Origin: Mycobacteriales bacterium
GTDB taxonomy: Bacteria > Actinomycetota > Actinomycetes > Mycobacteriales > SCTD01
Direction of reading: 5' to 3'
Length of the DNA: 64,000 nucleotides
Assembly (NCBI GenBank): GCA_030447385.1
Contig: JAUJOY010000006.1
Span: forward strand, 77,405 to 141,404
The stretch's first letter is position 1. Each line of letters opens with the position of its first letter. Below, one piece after another: positions 55,321 to 63,241 of the stretch. The position numbers were made by a program, and so were the translations under genes. The notes under the pieces were generated by a model, which was not told where the DNA came from, did no database searches, and saw only the letters and a program-made list of their open reading frames with translations.

Positions 55321-55653
55321 CTACCCGCCGTCGGACGGCTCTGCTCGTACCAGGAACAGCCCCTCGTCGAACCCGCCGCGCAGCTCGCGCTTGCTGTCGG
55401 CCAGGTCCACGACGTCCTCGAAGGAGAGCCCGAGAGTCCTCGCCAGCGCACGGACGACCTCGACGACGTCTGCCAGCTCCTCCGGCAGCTCGTCGTCGGA
55501 GGCTGCGGCTGACTCCGCTGCTTCCTCGGCCAGCTTCTCGAGCAGCGCGGGACGACGCTCGGCCGTGGGCAGGACTTCGACGACCGGTGTCCGCCCATCA
55601 GCCGTGATGAGGTCCGGGATCCTGTCGCGCACCAGCTTGCCGAAGCCGGTCAC
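55321..55653 (-). CDS. MazG-like nucleoside triphosphate pyrophosphohydrolase
   Basis: KLVRDRIP, KLAEE, EELADVVEV, KRELRGGF; GTGA overlap with the upstream HNH gene. Confidence 0.88.
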   Translation of the reverse strand: MTGFGKLVRDRIPDLITADGRTPVVEVLPTAERRPALLEKLAEEAAESAAASDDELPEELADVVEVVRALARTLGLSFEDVVDLADSKRELRGGFDEGLFLVRAEPSDGG

Positions 55654-56774
55654 GTTGCCTCCAGCAGGGGCAGCACCTCGAGCAGTCGCGCCCGATCGAG
55701 CACGGTGTAGACGCCGGGCTCCTGCCACAGCGCGGTCCCAGACGGCAGATGCGCGTAGAGGCCGCGTGCCACCCGCTTGGAGCGTTCGAGCTGCAGCGGC
55801 CAGCCCGCGTCGTCGGCGACCTGGCCGAAGACGCCCTCGGGTCGGCTGGCCCAGCGGGTCAACAACGTGAGGTCGGCGTAGTGGTCGCGCTTGTCGTTGT
55901 TGCAGCGCCGGTCGGCCAGCACGAGGTTGCCGAGCGCGTCGTTCGGCATCCGCGACCACGGCACGAAGTGGTCGATCTCTACGTCACCGGCCGGCAGCGG
56001 CCGGCGGCAGTAGAAGCACTGGCCCGCCTGAGCCTCCCGCAGACCAGGGCCGAGTGACCGCAGGTTGACCCGGTCGCTGCCGAACAGGAACTGCCGCAGA
56101 TGGTCCTCCGGCAGCTCCTCGTTGCTGAAGCTCGCGACTGCTCGCGTCCAGTGCAGCTCCACGACTGGTCGCAGCAGGCCGCCGAGGCTGACCAGCCAGT
56201 CGCCGACGTTCGGCTTCAGCACGACGTCCATTGGTCGTTGGCGCAGCTGCCGTGCCGTCACCCCCTCGTGAAAAGGCTTGTCGTCGTAGAGGAACCGGGG
56301 ATAGTCGGCGGCGCCATTCGCCGCGTATCCCTGCGGCCGCTGAAGCTTCCCGAGCGGCATCTGCACGAGGGTGAGCTCGATCAGCCCGATTGTCTGCTCG
56401 TACGCCGTCGGCAGTGCCCGCTGCGCCCCCGCCGGGCTTCGCGCGCCGACCGCTTGGGCCCGGTTGCGCAGCGCCCGTACCGCGTCGACGGTGACAGCGC
56501 GCGGCTGGCTCGACTGCCGTAGCAGCGGGGAGCCGTCGTGGCGGGCGTACGGGCGGACCTGTGGCCAGTACAGCTCAAGCACGCGGACGGCCAGGTCCTG
56601 GACAGGGACCCGGCTGGGGGCGCGACCTTCCGCGTCAGCCGAGAGCGCGCAGCAGTCGATCAGGGCGAGCAGCACGGCGAGCTTGTAGGTGGCGGTGCGG
56701 CGTCCCTCGTCGAGGATCGTCAGCACCAGCTGCGCCCAGGCAGCCGCGTTGCCGGAGCTGCTGTCCTCGTGCAC
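55650..56774 (-). CDS. HNH endonuclease with large N-terminal domain
   Basis: TATYKLAVLLAL N-terminal motif; CFYC...IDHFVPWS...NLVLADRRCN. Confidence 0.87.
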   Translation of the reverse strand: MHEDSSSGNAAAWAQLVLTILDEGRRTATYKLAVLLALIDCCALSADAEGRAPSRVPVQDLAVRVLELYWPQVRPYARHDGSPLLRQSSQPRAVTVDAVRALRNRAQAVGARSPAGAQRALPTAYEQTIGLIELTLVQMPLGKLQRPQGYAANGAADYPRFLYDDKPFHEGVTARQLRQRPMDVVLKPNVGDWLVSLGGLLRPVVELHWTRAVASFSNEELPEDHLRQFLFGSDRVNLRSLGPGLREAQAGQCFYCRRPLPAGDVEIDHFVPWSRMPNDALGNLVLADRRCNNDKRDHYADLTLLTRWASRPEGVFGQVADDAGWPLQLERSKRVARGLYAHLPSGTALWQEPGVYTVLDRARLLEVLPLLEAT

Positions 56775-56799
56775 GGGTCGACTGTCCCACCTGGCCCTA

Positions 56800-56998
56800 T
56801 CAGCGCTGCTCGTCCTCAGCCTCCGGCCGCGGACCTTCCGCCCGCGGACCCACCGCCCGGTGAAGCGGCGCCCGGCGCAGCCGAACTCGTTGAGCATCCG
56901 CCGTCGTGCAGCAGGCACTCGTCAGGCAGCGGGGCGGTCAGCTCGTCGGAGGACCGCGCCGGCGAGGCCCCCAGCTCGACGGTCTCGTTCGTGATCAT
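56800..56998 (-). pseudogene. Possible DUF2695-like fragment
   Basis: LTAPLPDECLL / RMLNEFGC split across frames and truncated. Confidence 0.35.
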
Positions 56999-57055: not shown

Positions 57056-57935
57056 CTACGGCCGCGTGAAGGTCCGCCACCGCTGCTCGAGCAGGTCCCG
57101 GTCGGGCCGATCGACGACGCGCCTGGGCAGCTCGAGCGTCCAGCCGTGGACGTCCTGGATGCCGTGCTTGAGCATCGGCCCGTCCACCTCGACCAGCACG
57201 TCACGGCGCACCTCTACAACGAAATCCGGACGCACGCCGAGGATGCCGCGGTCATAGGCAGCATGGTGGATCTTGCACAGCGACAGCCCGTTCGGGACGA
57301 CTGGCTGGCCGCCCTCGGCGTCGGACAGGATGTGCGCGGCGTCCAGCAGGTCGACGTGCCGAAGCCGGCAGATCGCGCAGGCCCGCTCGTACGCCATCAG
57401 GACTCGAGCCCGGAACACCGGCTGGTGCAGCCGAAGCTTGGTGAGTCGCTCGGCGTATTCCCGCGTGTCGGCGGTAGGCGCCGATCCCGCGAGGAAGCGC
57501 AGGTTCTCGTCCAACGCGATCTCGACGAATCGACCCACCGGGTTGTCGGCGACGACGTAGACCGGAAAGGTCGGGACGAATACCCCAGGAGCGATGCCCT
57601 GCAGCAGGACGAGCGGCAACCCCAGCTCCGCGACGCGGCGGAGCTTGCGGTTGTCGCCGCCATCGGGATCGCCGTCCCGGTAGGCATAGCGCAGCAGCCC
57701 GTCCTCCGTCTCGGCGTCGTCGTACGGCCCCTCCGGTTGGCTCAGGATCGACAGGGTGGCCGCCAGCTGCCGGGGGTTGCGGATGCCGCGGCTCTGGTCG
57801 ATCAGCTTGAGCCGCTCGCTGCCGTAGGAGAACGCCTCGAGCTGAGCCCGCGTGACCACTCCGCCGGGACGAGGCCATGAGCTGGGCGAGGTAGGCCATC
57901 GCCGACCGGCGTACCTCGAGCTCGTACAGCAGCAT
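57056..57935 (-). CDS. HNH endonuclease with SRA/PUA-like N-terminal domain; frameshift near 57870
   Basis: FRARVLMAY..CAIC...LLDAAHI...NGLSLCKIHHAAYD. The start frame (ATG 57935) shifts in a C-run into GGVVTRAQL. Confidence 0.8.
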
Positions 57936-57988: not shown

Positions 57989-58930
57989 ATGACCCGCTGC
58001 TTTCCGCCGAACCCCGAGTTCGGCAGAGGCCGGCACGGCGAGCGCGCCGTGTGGGAGGCGCTGAGCGCGCACCTGCCTGACGAGGCAGCAATCCTCTACT
58101 CGCGCTGGATCGTCGAGGAGGCTCGTGAGCACGAGATCGACGTGCTCGTGGCCTGGCTCGGGATCGGCTCGCGGCGATCGAGGTCAAGGGCGGTCATGTC
58201 GAGCGCGACGCGCGGGACCGCTGGTGGAGCAACCGGGGACACGACAGGCGCCAGATCGCGCACCCGCTGACCCAGGCCGCCGACGCGCGGCACGCCCTGC
58301 AGCGGCACCTGGCGAGGGCCCCTCGCGCTCGACTGGGGTGCGCCGCCGCCGAGTGGCGACGAGAGCGACTACTACGAGCAGGAGCTCCCGCGGGCGCTCG
58401 GTGAGCTGGCGCTCGGTCGACCAGTCGCTGAGCGATTAGAGGCCGTGGTCGTCGACGAGGCGCAGGACTTCTGCGAGCTGTGGTGGCCCTCGCTGCTGTC
58501 CTGCCTGAAGGACCCCGACTTCGGCGGCGTCTACGTGTTCCTGGTCGCGGCGCAGCGCGTGTTTCAGCCGGCAGGCCGAGCCACCGATCTCGATCCCGCC
58601 GTACGTGCTCTACGACAACATCCGCAGCACCAAGCGCATCGCGCAAGGTGTTCGGAGCCTCGGCGCGGAGCAGGGCGCGTACGCCGGGATCGAGGGGCGC
58701 CGGTGCGCTTCGTGCAGTGCGCCCCGCAGGAGGCGACCGGACGCGCCGACGATGCCGTCGACGCCCTGCTGAACGACTGGGCTCCTGGGCACGCCCTGTC
58801 CACCACCAACCACCGGCACAACCTGCCGCACGAGGTCGTGGGCAATCAGGGCTGGAACGCCTACTGGGACGGCTTCTTCGCCGAGGACGACGTCCTCTAC
58901 GGGCACGTGCTCGGATTCAAGGGCCTGGAG
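57989..58930 (+). pseudogene. NERD nuclease-UvrD-like helicase, degraded
   Basis: GERAVW...EIDVLV..IEVKGG (NERD) and VVVDEAQDF...FKGLE (helicase) in several frames; the middle is missing. Confidence 0.7.
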
Positions 58931-58991
58931 CCGTCTCCGCCGACCGGGCGGAGCCTCGGTGCAGGGCGTCGGCAGCTTCATCCGCTCCAGC

Positions 58992-59131: not shown

Positions 59132-60523
59132 TCAGCCCTGCAAGACCGCGGCGATCGAAGGGCGCGGCGACCGCCCGGACGGAAGGACCTGCTGGACCCG
59201 CCGCAGCGCCTCGACCTCCGAGGTCCCAGTGACCAGGGCGCCGTACGCGGCGGCGACCACCGGGGTGCGCGTCTGCGCGTGCACGCAGTGCAGCAGTACC
59301 GACTTGCCCTCGGCACGCAGCGCCTGGACCGCCGCCGCGGCATCCGTGACCGCCGCCCGCAGGTCGATGTTCGCGTCCTCCTTGTCCACGATCCACACCT
59401 CGATGTGGTCCTGCGGCGCCACGCCCTCGAGCGGGACATCGTCGCCGAGACGGCAGAGGCTGACGACAGCATCCGCGACTCCCGGCCGCAGCGTTCCCAC
59501 CGCACCGAGCAGGACCCCCGGGTCGTCCGGGTGCGCCACCACCTCGCCGGCGGCGACCGCGTACGTCATCGTCCCTGGCCAGCCGTCCTGGTCGGGCCGG
59601 CCCTGGCCCACCGTCAGCAACGCCAGCCGGCTCAGGTCCCGGGCGCGCAGATCCGGCCAGCCGTGCAGCAGCCGGCGCCAGCGGAACGGCACCGCGCTCC
59701 CCCCATGCCTCGCTCCGAGAAGAGCGCCCGCGATCGACGCAACCGTGTCGGTGTCGCCACCGCCTGCCACGGCCGCGACCAGCCCTGCCTCCAGGGTCGA
59801 CGTGTGCGTGATGGCCGACCACGCGCCCTGCAGGGCGGAGACGACCCAGCCGTTGCTGTGCGCCAAGTGCGACGGCTCGAGCGCCTCCGCCTCCTCCAGC
59901 AGCGCGCCCCATGTCGCGTCCACCCGCGGGAGTCCGACGTGGACGTCGAGCTCCCCGGTGCGTACCGCAGTGTCGATAGCCAGGCACCACAGCACGCACG
60001 CGTCTCCTGCGACAGGGTCGTGATGGGTCAGCTCGCTGATCGCCCGCGCCGCCCCGGCGAGAGCGTCGGGGTCACCGAGGTGGGCCAGCGCGACGGGCGA
60101 GGTGCGCATGAGCGATCCGTTGCCCGCGGTCCTGCCCGTACGCGCATGCAGATGCGCCGCGGCGGCCCGCAGCTGTGGCGCGACCGGCCCGTCCCCCACA
60201 GCCGACAGCACCCTCCGGGTCTGGATGCCGACATCGGGCGGGTCGGCCGCGCACCACCCGAGAAAGCCCTGCGCCACAGCCTCCAGCGCCTCCTCGCTGC
60301 CCAGGTCGGCGCCGGTGGCAGCGACTCGGGCAATGACGGCAGCCATCTCGGTGTCGTCGCTCCACTGCCCAGGAGCCAGGCCGCCGAGCCCACCGCCGAG
60401 CATCTGCGGCTCGCCCTCGACAGGACGCGAGCCGTACTCGTACGGGACGCCGAGGGCATCACCGGCCGCGGCACCCAGCAGGGCACCGACCGCACGGTCA
60501 GCCTGTTGCGGGGACAGGCGCAT
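59132..60523 (-). CDS. ADP-ribosylglycohydrolase fused to a Cys-based (CX5R) phosphatase domain
   Basis: GDALG, WSDDTE, GNGSLMR, GGDTDT; C-terminal LLHCVHAQTRT. Confidence 0.9.
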   Translation of the reverse strand: MRLSPQQADRAVGALLGAAAGDALGVPYEYGSRPVEGEPQMLGGGLGGLAPGQWSDDTEMAAVIARVAATGADLGSEEALEAVAQGFLGWCAADPPDVGIQTRRVLSAVGDGPVAPQLRAAAAHLHARTGRTAGNGSLMRTSPVALAHLGDPDALAGAARAISELTHHDPVAGDACVLWCLAIDTAVRTGELDVHVGLPRVDATWGALLEEAEALEPSHLAHSNGWVVSALQGAWSAITHTSTLEAGLVAAVAGGGDTDTVASIAGALLGARHGGSAVPFRWRRLLHGWPDLRARDLSRLALLTVGQGRPDQDGWPGTMTYAVAAGEVVAHPDDPGVLLGAVGTLRPGVADAVVSLCRLGDDVPLEGVAPQDHIEVWIVDKEDANIDLRAAVTDAAAAVQALRAEGKSVLLHCVHAQTRTPVVAAAYGALVTGTSEVEALRRVQQVLPSGRSPRPSIAAVLQG

Positions 60524-61368
60524 CAGGCCGCCACCAGCTCGTGCCGGCGGTTCACCGCGACGGCGTGCACGGCACGATCCCGCCACAGCAGTCCGCCGAG
60601 GTGTGCGTACGGCGAAGCACCGCGCACGCCGGTTGCTGCTCCCGCCGGCTGCTCCACGACGGACACCGACTCCAGGCGCCCGACGAACCGCCGCGCCCGC
60701 CGTCCGGGAGTTGCGACTGGCGCGGCACCTACGGCGTCGAGAGCCACCGAGCTGAGCAGCGCCTGCCAGGCGGAGGCCAGGGTGCGGGGGGAGTCGAAGA
60801 CCTCCAGCAGCAGCGGCTGGCCGCTGATCCCGACGAGGACGCCGCACTGGTGCGGCAGCGGGCGGACACCGGCGAGCAGTGCGTTCGCCGCCTCCTGGGC
60901 CCGCCTTGTCGCGTCCAGCAGGGAGTGCGTGTCACTGCGGTCGTAGCGCTGCTCGTAGCGGTTCACCTCGGCCCACACGGCGCTCTGGTCGCGGACGGCG
61001 CGTACGGAGGTCGGGGCCCGGCGGCCTCCACGGTGGTGCCGCGCCGCGCCGGACCAGCGGCCCTGCTCCACGCAGGAGACGTCCAGCACGAGAGAACTCC
61101 CGGCGTCGATCAGGACCGAGCGGGAGCAGACGCGGTGCTGCTGGCCGCCTTCGAGCAGCTCGCCTTCGAGGAGAAGCGCGGGCCGCTTGCCCGCGTTGGT
61201 CACCACGAGCTCCCCGACGACGGCTGAGCCGGCCCGCTCGCTCACGTCCAGGTCCGACGTACGGAGGTCGTAGCCGCGGCTGGCTACGGCCGCGCCGTTC
61301 CACACCGGGAACAGGCTCAGCGCACCGCGATGCAGGGGCTCGCCGAGGTGGAGGTCGAGGAGCTTCAT
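60523..61368 (-). CDS. ARPP-1 / DUF6569 family protein
   Basis: LVVTN...LLLEGELLEGGQQHRV...SCVEQGRW; stop overlaps the ARG start. Confidence 0.8.
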   Translation of the reverse strand: MKLLDLHLGEPLHRGALSLFPVWNGAAVASRGYDLRTSDLDVSERAGSAVVGELVVTNAGKRPALLLEGELLEGGQQHRVCSRSVLIDAGSSLVLDVSCVEQGRWSGAARHHRGGRRAPTSVRAVRDQSAVWAEVNRYEQRYDRSDTHSLLDATRRAQEAANALLAGVRPLPHQCGVLVGISGQPLLLEVFDSPRTLASAWQALLSSVALDAVGAAPVATPGRRARRFVGRLESVSVVEQPAGAATGVRGASPYAHLGGLLWRDRAVHAVAVNRRHELVAA

Positions 61369-61380
61369 GAGCCCTCCTTC

Positions 61381-61406
61381 TATTTAGCGCGAAGCCGCGC
61401 TAAATA
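61381..61406. promoter_or_regulatory. Palindromic operator, likely bound by the NrtR-like regulator
   Basis: TATTTAGCGCG-AAGC-CGCGCTAAATA perfect 11-bp inverted repeat in the divergent intergenic region; a second half-site CCGCGCTAT lies near 61419. Confidence 0.75.
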
Positions 61407-61437
61407 ATAAGAGCAGATCCGCGCTATCTTGTCTAAC

Positions 61438-62106
61438 ATGGCCTGGACGGACGCCCACGGCAAGACGCTCGCGGACTACCCCCGTCCCTCACTGGCCGTT
61501 GACGTGGCGCTCCTGACGGTCCGTTTCGACGAGGAGCGAGACGCCCAGCTGTGCGTGCTGCTCCTGCCGCACGAGGACGGCAGGTGGTCCCTTCCGGGCT
61601 CCTTCGTGCGCGCGGGGGAGCGGCTCGTCGAGGCCGTACGCCGCACCGTCTCCGGCAAGCTGGGGCTCGAGACGCGCGACCCCAGGCAGCTCGCGGTATT
61701 CGACGACCCGGCCCGCGACACCCGTGGACATGTGGTGTCCGTAGCGCACGTGGACCTGCTGGCGGAGTCCCGGCTGCGGGGGGAGGGCGGCTGGCTGCTC
61801 GCCCCGGTCGAACGCGGCCGCGCCCGGGCGCCGGGGCGCCGGCGGCTGCTGTACGACCACGATGCGATCGTGGCCGCAGCGGCGTCCTGGGCGCAGGAGC
61901 GCTACCGGCGCCGGCCGGACCCCTCACATCTGCTGCCCGAGCCGTTCACGTTGCGTGAGCTCCGGCTGCTGCACGAGGCAGTGCTGGGGGAGCGGCTGCA
62001 GAAGGACAGCTTCCGGCGCGCCATGAGCGACTCGCTCGTCGAGGTGCCGGAACGCAGCTCGGGCGGACCGGGTCGCCCGGCGGCGAAGTTCCAGCTGCCG
62101 CGCTGA
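61438..62106 (+). CDS. nrtR: NrtR-like Nudix-wHTH transcriptional regulator
   Basis: DYPRPSLAVDV, LPGSFV, DDPARDTRGHVVS, DH, FTLREL...FRR, GRPA. Confidence 0.87.
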   Translation: MAWTDAHGKTLADYPRPSLAVDVALLTVRFDEERDAQLCVLLLPHEDGRWSLPGSFVRAGERLVEAVRRTVSGKLGLETRDPRQLAVFDDPARDTRGHVVSVAHVDLLAESRLRGEGGWLLAPVERGRARAPGRRRLLYDHDAIVAAAASWAQERYRRRPDPSHLLPEPFTLRELRLLHEAVLGERLQKDSFRRAMSDSLVEVPERSSGGPGRPAAKFQLPR

Positions 62107-62155: not shown

Positions 62156-63241
62156 TCAGACCGGCGCCGTCGTCAGCTCGTAGAAGCGCCAGAACCCGAA
62201 CGCGGAGATGGGCAGGACGTTCATCCCGGTGAAGCCGGCGTCGAGCGCGTACTGCCTCAGCGTCGCCGGTCTCATCACCGTGCCCGTGCCGGCGCTCGGC
62301 GGGTGGGAGAGCCCGTCGGGAAGGCAGATGAGCAGACTGAAGCCGTACATCAGCCGTTCCAGCTCATCACCGGGAGCCGAGAAGGACTCGGCGACCGCTT
62401 CGTCCATCACGATCATCGTCCGGCCCGGCGCGAGCGCCCGTCGGGCCGCGGCCAGCACGTCCACGGGCCGGGGCATGTCGTGGACGCACTCGAACGCGAA
62501 GATCGCGTCGTAGGAGTCAGCCGCCAGCTCCTCCGCGTCTGCGCAGCGGAAGGTGAGCCGGTCGGTCATCCCGGAAGCAGCTGCGTTGCCGAGGGCGAGC
62601 CCGATCGAAGGGGCATCGATGTCCACCCCCTCGACCACCGCTGCGGGGTAGGTGCGGGCCAGGGCGAGGCTGGACCAGCCGGCACCGCATCCCACGTCGG
62701 CGATCCGGGCGCCCGGCCGGCTCAGGACGACGTCGAGGGACGCGACGCCCTTCAACGCCTCCGGCAGCGCCTTCTCGTACCACGGCCGGTTCATGTCGGC
62801 CTGTGACTCGCGTGCGTCGGCGCCGAACTGCGACCAGCTGACCCCGCCCCCGGACCTGTACGCCTCGAGCAGGGCGGGCAGCTGCCCAGCCGCCGCGGCC
62901 AGCATCCGCGCCAGCGGGGCCATGTAGGACAGGCTCGACCTGTCGGTCAGGACCTCCTCCGCCCCTGGCGGGAGGGAGAAGCGCCTGTCCTCGTCCACGG
63001 CCAGCACTGCATTGACAGCCTGCTGCTCCAGCCACTCCCTGGCGTAGCGGGGATGGGTTCCGGTGCGACGAGCCAGCTCCTCAGCCGTCGCCGGCCCGTC
63101 GGCAGACAGGCTGCGGTACCAGCCGAGCCGGTCTCCCAGGTAGATCGCCAGCATGTCGGTCATCCCCAGCGCTGCACTCAGCACGCGCTCACCGAAGGCG
63201 TCCGTGTCCCGCCGGTCCGGCACCTGTGGTGGTGATGTCAT
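62156..63241 (-). CDS. wHTH-class I SAM methyltransferase (Rv2258c-like)
   Basis: LGDRLGWY, RYAREWL, IADVGCGAGW, FECVHDM, GTGTVM. Confidence 0.88.
   Translation of the reverse strand: MTSPPQVPDRRDTDAFGERVLSAALGMTDMLAIYLGDRLGWYRSLSADGPATAEELARRTGTHPRYAREWLEQQAVNAVLAVDEDRRFSLPPGAEEVLTDRSSLSYMAPLARMLAAAAGQLPALLEAYRSGGGVSWSQFGADARESQADMNRPWYEKALPEALKGVASLDVVLSRPGARIADVGCGAGWSSLALARTYPAAVVEGVDIDAPSIGLALGNAAASGMTDRLTFRCADAEELAADSYDAIFAFECVHDMPRPVDVLAAARRALAPGRTMIVMDEAVAESFSAPGDELERLMYGFSLLICLPDGLSHPPSAGTGTVMRPATLRQYALDAGFTGMNVLPISAFGFWRFYELTTAPV

Follow-up and report, generated by a model that had tools for sequence, protein, structure and literature searches.

The window (the whole stretch of 64,000 nucleotides that was analysed) contains a gene for an NrtR-like regulator and, divergent from it, a two-gene operon encoding ARPP-1 and an ADP-ribosylglycohydrolase (ARG) fused to a phosphatase, which raises the question of what these proteins accomplish together and of whose ADP-ribosylation they would process. 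ARG-centred systems, for which a role against virus-imposed ADP-ribosylation was predicted, have been described by Iyer, Burroughs, Anantharaman, and Aravind (Viruses 2022; PMC9503650, section 3.8). They are marked by an ARG without a coupled ADP-ribosyltransferase or sirtuin, by a Nudix-HTH or WYL negative regulator, by a phosphatase that is fused or adjacent to the ARG and in most cases belongs to the rhodanese-phosphatase superfamily, and by an ARPP with an absolutely conserved Cys and Gln; the phosphatases were proposed to process the released ADPr (PMC9503650). The system type has therefore already been published in silico, and the present locus is a further member of it. In particular, we can state with high confidence that it belongs, as a compact member that regulates itself, to the ARG-centred systems of ADP-ribose processing, with the order nrtR-like <O2-O1> arpp-1, then arg::dusp. 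The original prediction, that of an inducible system reversing ADP-ribosylation, matches the comparative genomics of Iyer et al. (PMC9503650), and all of the sequence-level tests that were run fit the function that we infer. The same prediction had called the system experimentally uncharacterised, and our literature search likewise yielded no experimental paper on it.

The NrtR-like gene, the ARPP-1 gene, and the ARG-phosphatase gene form a real, intact three-gene unit. The regulator gene, on the plus strand (61438 to 62106), encodes 222 amino acids with an N-terminal Nudix sensor and a C-terminal NrtR winged helix, and on the minus strand the ARPP-1 (DUF6569; PF20208) gene (60523 to 61368; 281 amino acids) precedes the gene of the fusion (59132 to 60523; 463 amino acids), so that the divergence of the operon from a Nudix-wHTH regulator, coordinates included, was correctly predicted. 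The stop and start codons of the two minus-strand genes overlap as TGATG (60521 to 60525), with one base common to both, and an ATGA or GTGA overlap is found at this junction in the orthologous loci, which bears out the claim of a two-gene operon. An alternative start of nrtR is TTG 61429, but ATG 61438 is favored by the orthologue alignment and by the NCBI gene call (222 amino acids). The 11-bp inverted repeat that had been placed in a 60-bp gap is indeed perfect; the gap measures 60 bp only from the TTG, and 69 bp from the favored ATG. All three genes are under purifying selection (dN/dS, 0.22 to 0.30), the individual values being 0.24 for nrtR (versus the orthologous locus L023), 0.30 for ARPP-1, and 0.22 for the fusion. 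The nrtR<>arpp-arg/ptp order is kept in Pseudonocardia and other actinomycete loci, and the three-gene core is present in many orthologous loci. The neighbors of the locus are HNH, methyltransferase, sortase, and glycosyltransferase genes, with no adjoining ADP-ribosyltransferase gene among them.

Between the divergent genes, the predicted operator O1 (61381 to 61406) is a perfect 11+4+11 palindrome, TATTTAGCGCG-aagc-CGCGCTAAATA, whose conserved 8+4+8 core, TTAGCGCG-N4-CGCGCTAA, lies at 61384 to 61403 and has the consensus TTAGCGCR-N4-YGCGCTAA. The palindrome is the sole copy in the 3.41-Mb genome, even with up to 5 mismatches allowed, and perfect inverted repeats of 11 nt with a 0- to 10-nt loop number just 262 genome-wide, only 8 of which carry five or more A/T in each arm. 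Furthermore, the core is kept in 10 orthologous loci, the proteins of which are just 44 to 76% identical; the palindrome expected at this position is thus perfect, unique in the genome, and conserved in its core. O1 is located between the putative -10 element and the ribosome-binding site (GAAGGAGGG; 61372 to 61380, minus strand) of the ARPP-1 operon.

A candidate second binding site, O2 (61408 to 61427), which was absent from the original prediction, as were the atypical fold of the phosphatase and the decay of the nuclease/helicase effector part, reads ATAGCGCG-gatc-TGCTCTTA on the minus strand, an imperfect palindrome at a distance of 24 bp from O1, centre to centre. Its half-sites are kept in register, as TTAGCGCA-N4-TGCTCTTA, in 8 of the 10 orthologues, and its counterpart in L009 is TGCTCTAA. 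O2 overlaps the putative -10 elements of both divergent promoters. That of nrtR, TATCTT (61425 to 61430, plus strand; TAnnnT type), precedes ATG 61438 by 7 nt, with no Shine-Dalgarno sequence, which suggests that the nrtR mRNA may be leaderless and autoregulated; most orthologues present TAACTT at an equal offset. The putative promoter of the ARPP-1 operon (61407 to 61435, minus strand) would consist of a TAGACA -35 element (61430 to 61435), a 17-nt spacer, and an extended -10 element, TGc-TCTTAT (61407 to 61415), of which GACA and TGCTCTTAT are kept among the orthologues. The promoter elements were picked by eye at conserved positions, and a simple scan for sigma-70 consensus promoters and terminators gave no match for either of the two. 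This layout of operators and promoters is not in the paper by Iyer et al. (PMC9503650).

The regulator matches NrtR_WHD (1.2e-14) and NUDIX (6.6e-6) in Pfam, and its sequence matches in the PDB are 2fml, AraR (5bs6), and the NrtR of Shewanella (3gz5). The glutamates of the REUXEE signature are replaced in its Nudix box with T, G, and K and are missing in 8 of 8 orthologues too; judging from these replacements, the box is catalytically dead across the clade. A 2-bp deletion in the nrtR gene of Logan contig L028 was set aside as a probable assembly error, as it falls in a G-run and the contig shows several further 1-bp indels. The regulator has in common with the NrtR family (Shewanella NrtR structures 3gz5/3gz6/3gz8) its Nudix-like sensor, the signature of which is degenerate, and its winged helix at the C terminus, as well as the divergent arrangement of its gene and the palindromic sites; in this family, ADP-ribose frees the protein from DNA and the operator motifs differ among lineages (Rodionov et al. 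2008, PMC2330246). However, different from the common NrtR operator, which spans 21 bp and has a GT-N7-AC core, the predicted site is 20 bp long and follows the consensus given above for O1, and, different from NAD-type NrtR proteins, no NAD-biosynthesis target has this site in the genome. Moreover, the score against the NCBIfam equivalog of the ADPR-responsive NAD-gene repressor (NF050029) is 68.8 bits, compared to a cut-off of 400, so that the regulator belongs to a paralogous branch and is not the NAD regulator. Given an operator outside the common core and this low score, it is possible to hypothesize that the regulator may respond to a different derivative of ADPR. Divergons of the type "nrtR2<#>nrtX-nrtY," with function unassigned, have been noticed in Actinobacteria (Rodionov et al. 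2008, PMC2330246). A further NrtR paralogue of the genome, on contig C7, adjoins an Fpg/Nei-like gene and not NAD genes.

The N-terminal part of the fusion (approximately 59687 to 60487, minus strand) matches the Pfam family ADP_ribosyl_GH with 5.3e-51 and 174 bits (residues 13 to 279), is closest to DraG and Tri1, and is DraG-like in the PDB comparison. The residues E29, D56-D57-T58, and D259-T260 are invariant, and D257 is nearly so, being missing from one aligned row. The domain has in common with the DraG/Tri1/ARH-type hydrolases (PDB 2woc, 3g9d, and 6dre) the fold family and the metal-binding motifs (E29, SDDTE, and GGDTDT). However, the fusion scores far under the cut-offs of the DraG (TIGR02662; 118 versus 337) and Tri1 (NF041672; 84 versus 490) equivalogs and is therefore not an orthologue of either; different from both, the ARG is here joined to a phosphatase, and a partner transferase is lacking. 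The gene of the fusion is the sole ARG gene in the genome.

The C-terminal part (approximately 59135 to 59539, minus strand) reaches 23 to 26 bits against Pfam DSPc (residues 371 to 434), under the cut-off of 33.5 bits, and its sequence matches in the PDB are marginal as well (E of about 0.003 to 0.1), which made a fold prediction necessary to place it. The AlphaFold2 model of residues 290 to 463 (pLDDT 84) retrieves DUSP28, DUSP5, DUSP22, and Tk-PTP with Foldseek at TM scores of 0.6 to 0.78. According to the model, the domain presents an atypical dual-specificity-phosphatase (DUSP) fold with an HCX5R(S/T) P-loop, HCVHAQTRT (59264 to 59290), in agreement with the CX5R phosphatase domain that had been recognized on the ARG. 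In 25 homologues the HCX5RT loop is invariant, as are D380, H412, C413, R419, and T420; D380 lies 33 residues upstream of the Cys, and we infer that it is the general acid. Predicted fold, HCX5R(T) P-loop, and upstream Asp are shared with the atypical DUSPs (DUSP28, DUSP5, DUSP22, archaeal Tk-PTP, and PTPMT1), but the P-loop features an alanine where most of them have a glycine, and, different from them, the domain occurs solely as a C-terminal fusion to ARG.

The explanation that we favor as a whole, and that we consider rather probable, is that of a Nudix-wHTH-repressed, ADPR-induced eraser of externally imposed ADP-ribosylation, composed of ARPP-1 and the ARG-DUSP fusion. A dimeric repressor with a dead Nudix box would sit on the two neighboring 20-bp operators; its occupancy of O2 would block both -10 elements, and that of O1 would cover the transcript start of the operon, so that, by default, neither the operon nor nrtR would be expressed. 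Binding of ADP-ribose, or of a near derivative of it, to the Nudix domain would cause the repressor to leave the DNA, and translational coupling would then provide ARPP-1 and the fusion enzyme in a fixed ratio, acting together. The DraG-like, metal-dependent ARG domain would cut ADP-ribose off a modified macromolecule, the HCX5R DUSP-fold domain would take a phosphate from that substrate or from the released product, and the Cys99/Gln77/Arg79/Glu44 site of ARPP-1, a protein of unsolved fold, would bind or chemically process the ribose moiety. The most likely role of such a pathway would be the removal of ADP-ribosylation set by a phage or toxin ADP-ribosyltransferase.

A sensor of a type that binds free ADPR and a hydrolase fused to a phosphatase would also suit the clean-up or salvage of small molecules, whereby free ADPR species from NAD(P) cleavage (such as 2'-phospho-ADPR, ADPR-1''-phosphate, or O-acetyl-ADPR) would be sensed and processed, or the non-enzymatic glycation of proteins by ADP-ribose would be repaired, with the phosphatase acting on phospho-ADPR species and ARPP-1 capturing reactive ribose. 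The proposal of Iyer et al. that released ADPr is the phosphatase substrate (PMC9503650) points in the same direction, as does the addition, in relatives, of HAD_SAK_2 and Macro, domains tied to ADPR-phosphate and RNA-end chemistry. However, the ARG domain is nearest to DraG and Tri1, enzymes with protein arginine as their target, the patchy occurrence of the module (3 of 41 related genomes) would be odd for a housekeeping function, and in relatives the module is linked with nucleases and helicases of the kind that marks conflict systems; we regard this explanation as unlikely, albeit one to be taken seriously.

ARPP-1 matches PF20208 with 217 bits (cut-off, 27) and belongs to a family of more than 5,000 clusters at 50% identity, in 68 diverse homologues of which E44, Q77, R79, C99, R104, Q128, W132, and G176 are invariant. 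Its AlphaFold2 model is very confident (pLDDT 96.9), and neither the PDB nor the viral structure set yielded a match to it with Foldseek; ARPP-1 represents a large family without an assigned activity or a solved structural relative. It could be supposed that the central catalytic role falls to ARPP-1 rather than to the hydrolase, ARPP-1 being a Cys-dependent enzyme of unsolved fold which, complexed with ARG-DUSP, would handle the ribose or phospho-ribose stub, the core being a stand-alone, nuclease-free "eraser" immunity. The stub would be the one left once ADP-ribose has been cut from a protein or from a nucleic-acid end, and ARPP-1 would capture or convert it. A complex is suggested by one relative (L011) in which ARPP, ARG, and phosphatase are fused in a single polypeptide of 782 amino acids, and a stand-alone, nuclease-free eraser would be suggested by a core that is under selection here despite the loss of helicase and REase. 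Taken as a whole, we consider this proposal quite unlikely.

Erasure of a foreign modification also has to be weighed against an endogenous regulatory cycle, in which the hydrolase would undo ADP-ribosylation by an endogenous transferase, as in DraT/DraG or in Streptomyces development, with NrtR as feedback. The nrtR-draG locus of Streptomyces has been tied to reversible protein ADP-ribosylation (Rodionov et al. 2008, PMC2330246), and the ARG domain is DraG-like; nevertheless, the DraG equivalog is far from being reached (118 versus 337), the locus is without a transferase, a search of the genome for the ADPrib_exo_Tox and Arr-type (Arr-ms) families found no member of either, and, of 19 further genomes of the genus, 18 lack ARPP-1, so that such a cycle appears decidedly improbable.

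The lack of a transferase, at the locus and, for the two families named, in the genome, is instead a feature that the locus shares with the systems of Iyer et al., together with an adjoining, divergent Nudix-NrtR_WHD regulator with conserved predicted operators, a phosphatase fused to the ARG, an ARPP-1 in which C99 and Q77 are invariant (68 sequences), and Macro, REase, and helicase additions that are variable among its relatives. The closest relative's locus adds HAD, Macro, REase-ARP, and NERD helicase genes, the last two convergent to the operon, an intact arrangement with a convergent NERD helicase is found in L023 and L024, and a plasmid variant of the module has a RecB-like nuclease. 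Different from those systems, the locus is devoid of chaperone, Macro, and REase genes, and of the helicase only a pseudogene is left: a tblastn search with the 573-amino-acid NERD helicase of L023 detected a NERD-UvrD remnant (57995 to 58936, plus strand) covering residues 20 to 77, 78 to 126 (in another frame), and 305 to 510 of the query, with 127 to 304 missing. The locus would thus be a trimmed version, the nuclease/helicase effector part of which has decayed, and the loss of the effector genes could mean that it is on its way out. That the three genes are already a functionless leftover of an abortive-infection system, in which they would have provided sensing and processing and the lost REase-ARP nuclease and NERD helicase would have been the real effectors, is suggested by these losses, by the convergent effector genes of the closest relative, and by the nuclease of the plasmid variant, but is highly improbable in view of the dN/dS values (0.22 to 0.30), of catalytic and invariant residues that are all intact, of two intact predicted operators, O1 being perfect, and of a three-gene core present in many orthologous loci.

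With the nuclease/helicase second line of its relatives lost, the eraser core alone would remain, and the locus offers a clean, minimal version for testing: one repressor, two predicted operators, and two coupled genes, with the nuclease effectors already gone. To our knowledge, the erasure by a host of ADP-ribosylation imposed by a phage or a toxin has been predicted and never demonstrated. No copy of the module was found among 50,697 phage records, and PADLOC has no model covering any of the three proteins. The flanking methyltransferase, taken as a marker of the empty site, had a close match in none of 7 congener genomes (the one match showed 32% identity); since it is itself not conserved, the island borders are not fixed by the congener comparison. 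Homologues of HAD_SAK_2 and Macro on contig C8 adjoin a RecC-like gene and look unrelated to the locus.

The module extends from 59132 to 62106, as delineated by ORF and Pfam analysis of the window. A regulator of 222 aa containing NUDIX and NrtR winged-helix domains is encoded on the plus strand (ATG at 61438, or TTG at 61429, to 62106), divergently from an ARPP-1 gene (61368 to 60523, minus strand; 281 aa; Pfam ARPP-1/PF20208, 217 bits versus a cut-off of 27) and an ADP-ribosylglycohydrolase (ARG)-phosphatase fusion (60523 to 59132, minus strand; 463 aa), with the ARG domain at residues 13 to 279 (5.3e-51). The last two ORFs have one base in common (TGATG, 60521 to 60525), and the locus recurs with 99.95% identity in an independent NCBI assembly, GCA_030446855.1. 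The original prediction of a two-gene operon with a stop/start overlap, divergent from a Nudix-wHTH regulator, is thus confirmed.

The module type has already been described computationally. ARG-centred neighbourhoods of exactly the same kind, which lack a coupled transferase and combine a repressor of the Nudix-HTH or WYL type with a phosphatase of the rhodanese-phosphatase superfamily, ARPP and a varying presence of Macro, REase and helicase genes, were reported by Iyer, Burroughs, Anantharaman and Aravind (Viruses 2022, PMC9503650, section 3.8), who proposed that they erase virus-imposed ADP-ribosylation once ADP-ribose derepresses them. Rodionov et al. (2008, PMC2330246) had already listed nrtR-draG in Streptomyces, as well as actinobacterial 'nrtR2<#>nrtX-nrtY' divergons with no function assigned there. 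No experimental work on such systems was found in the literature searched, in keeping with their earlier description as experimentally uncharacterised. What is new at this locus is the predicted dual-operator/promoter layout, the predicted fold of the phosphatase domain, a relative in which ARPP-1, ARG and phosphatase are fused, and a core kept under selection despite nuclease/helicase decay.

Between nrtR and arpp-1, the expected perfect 11-bp inverted repeat was found as TATTTAGCGCG-aagc-CGCGCTAAATA (11+4+11, 61381 to 61406). The 3.41-Mb genome contains no other copy, even when up to 5 mismatches are tolerated, and among the 262 perfect 11-nt inverted repeats of the genome (loops of 0 to 10 nt) only 8 carry at least 5 A/T per arm; therefore, it is not a chance feature. 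In the orthologous loci compared, from Pseudonocardia, Amycolatopsis and uncultured actinomycetes (protein identity, 44 to 76%), the intergenic plan is kept in the same register, and the conserved core of this first predicted operator (O1) is TTAGCGCR-N4-YGCGCTAA (61384 to 61403 in the window). A predicted second 20-bp site (O2; 61408 to 61427), reading ATAGCGCG-gatc-TGCTCTTA on the minus strand, lies four bases from O1, with the centres 24 bp apart. The left half of O2 matches the O1 half-site, and its right half, TGCTCTTA, hardly varies among the orthologues (TGCTCTAA in the related locus L009).

A simple sigma-70 scan of the intergenic region returned no promoter, and the promoter elements proposed here were assigned by eye. 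In particular, a putative extended -10 of the operon (TGc-TCTTAT, 61407 to 61415, minus strand) coincides with the right half of O2, and a -35 candidate (TAGACA, 61430 to 61435, minus strand; TAGACA/TCGACA conserved) lies 17 nt upstream of it. O1 would then be placed between this -10 and the strong ribosome-binding site GAAGGAGGG (61372 to 61380). On the plus strand, the left half of O2 runs into TATCTT (61425 to 61430; TAACTT in most orthologues), a -10 candidate for nrtR. Since it lies only seven bases upstream of the ATG, with no Shine-Dalgarno sequence, the nrtR transcript is likely to be leaderless, and likely autoregulated.

The regulator aligns with Nudix-wHTH regulators of known structure, namely 2fml, Bacteroides AraR (5bs6) and Shewanella NrtR (3gz5). 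Its Nudix box reads R-T-V-S-G-K in place of REUXEE, and the catalytic glutamates are likewise lost in all eight aligned orthologues, which argues for a sensor rather than a hydrolase. With the NAD-type NrtR equivalog model, for which the cut-off is 400 bits, it reaches only 69 bits, and its operator departs from the 21-bp GT-N7-AC core common in the NrtR family (Rodionov et al.). In architecture the regulator is of the NrtR family, but it is on a separate branch, so that we can only infer an ADP-ribose-type ligand. A second NrtR-like paralogue of the same genome (246 aa, 33% identical; contig C7, 89684 to 90424, minus strand) is divergent from a Fpg/Nei-like DNA glycosylase gene and not beside NAD biosynthesis genes.

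The ARG domain is closest to DraG (PDB 2woc/3g9d) and Tri1, although far below both equivalog cut-offs, and retains E29, S55-D56-D57-T58 and the GGDTDT motif, positions with little or no variation across 25 homologues. The predicted CX5R phosphatase domain was borne out by the HCVHAQTRT loop in the C-terminal stretch, by a sub-threshold DSPc match and by a DUSP-like predicted fold. Modelled alone (pLDDT 84), this domain matched DUSP28, DUSP5, DUSP22, Tk-PTP and PTPMT1 in Foldseek (TM 0.6 to 0.78, probability 1.00), the model thus matching the atypical dual-specificity phosphatases. H412, C413, R419 and T420 are invariant in the 25 homologues, as is Asp380, 33 residues upstream.

The ARPP-1 family comprises 5,288 clusters at 50% identity (E <= 0.001). 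Across 68 diverse homologues, eight positions are invariant (E44, Q77, R79, C99, R104, Q128, W132 and G176), which include both the Cys and the Gln highlighted in the ARPP of the systems of Iyer et al. The confidence of the AlphaFold model is very high (pLDDT 96.9, pTM 0.93), but neither the PDB (best TM < 0.2) nor a viral structure set yielded a match to it at E <= 0.001.

The gene order nrtR<>arpp-arg/ptp is repeated among the orthologous loci, and the ARPP-1 stop is overlapped by the ARG start in all orthologues examined (ATGA or GTGA). Moreover, an uncultured Actinomycetota MAG (L011, 5992 to 8337, plus strand) encodes ARPP-1, ARG and the CX5R phosphatase in one 782-aa protein, and dN/dS versus the closest relative (L023) is 0.24 for nrtR, 0.30 for arpp-1 and 0.22 for the arg fusion. 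These data point to three functional genes that act in concert. Within the limits of sequence evidence, the inducible sensing and reversal of ADP-ribosylation originally predicted is supported; the biological role would be the erasure of foreign ADP-ribosylation, with the ligand, substrates and ARPP-1 activity likewise presumptive. Family searches of the genome revealed neither a second ARG gene nor a transferase of the ADPrib_exo_Tox or Arr type.

In the closest relative (L023/L024), whose ARPP-1 is 73% identical, the system is more complete. Its order is HAD_SAK_2, nrtR <> arpp-1, arg::ptp, Macro, after which come REase-ARP (PF22558) and NERD-UvrD helicase genes in convergent orientation. 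At the window locus, REase-ARP and Macro are missing and the helicase is a pseudogene remnant (57995 to 58936, plus strand), with a frameshift near 58168 and a deletion of homologue residues 127 to 304 (about 178 codons). As judged from sequence comparison, the locus demonstrates a three-gene core still under selection after the nuclease/helicase part decayed. Beyond the remnant, two HNH endonuclease genes (55650 to 56918 and 57056 to 57859, both minus strand), matching PADLOC HNH, PtuB-like and Cas9-HNH models, may represent a small defence islet of their own. On the other side, a Rv2258c-like wHTH-methyltransferase (62156 to 63241, minus strand) lacks a close homologue in all seven of the related genomes compared, so that the variable region reaches past the ARG module.

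Of 41 related genomes, only 3 contain ARPP-1; within the genus, 1 of the 19 other genomes has it, and there was no match among 50,697 phage records. Only two plasmids carry it, both from Pimelobacter, with a RecB-like nuclease after ARG. In P. simplex plasmid pA-N39 (L035, 31515 to 35862), DUF6569/ARPP-1, a small ORF, a 502-aa ARG-family protein and the RecB-like nuclease follow a gene annotated as hypothetical, which is co-directional and not divergent.

Relative to the window, the NCBI assembly and a metagenomic Logan contig of the same strain (L028) have a 3-bp ATC insertion at 58791, within the helicase pseudogene. L028 also has a 2-bp deletion in a G-run (61782 to 61783) that would truncate nrtR; as the contig contains five other 1-bp indels, the deletion probably arose in assembly and does not represent a natural derepressed variant.
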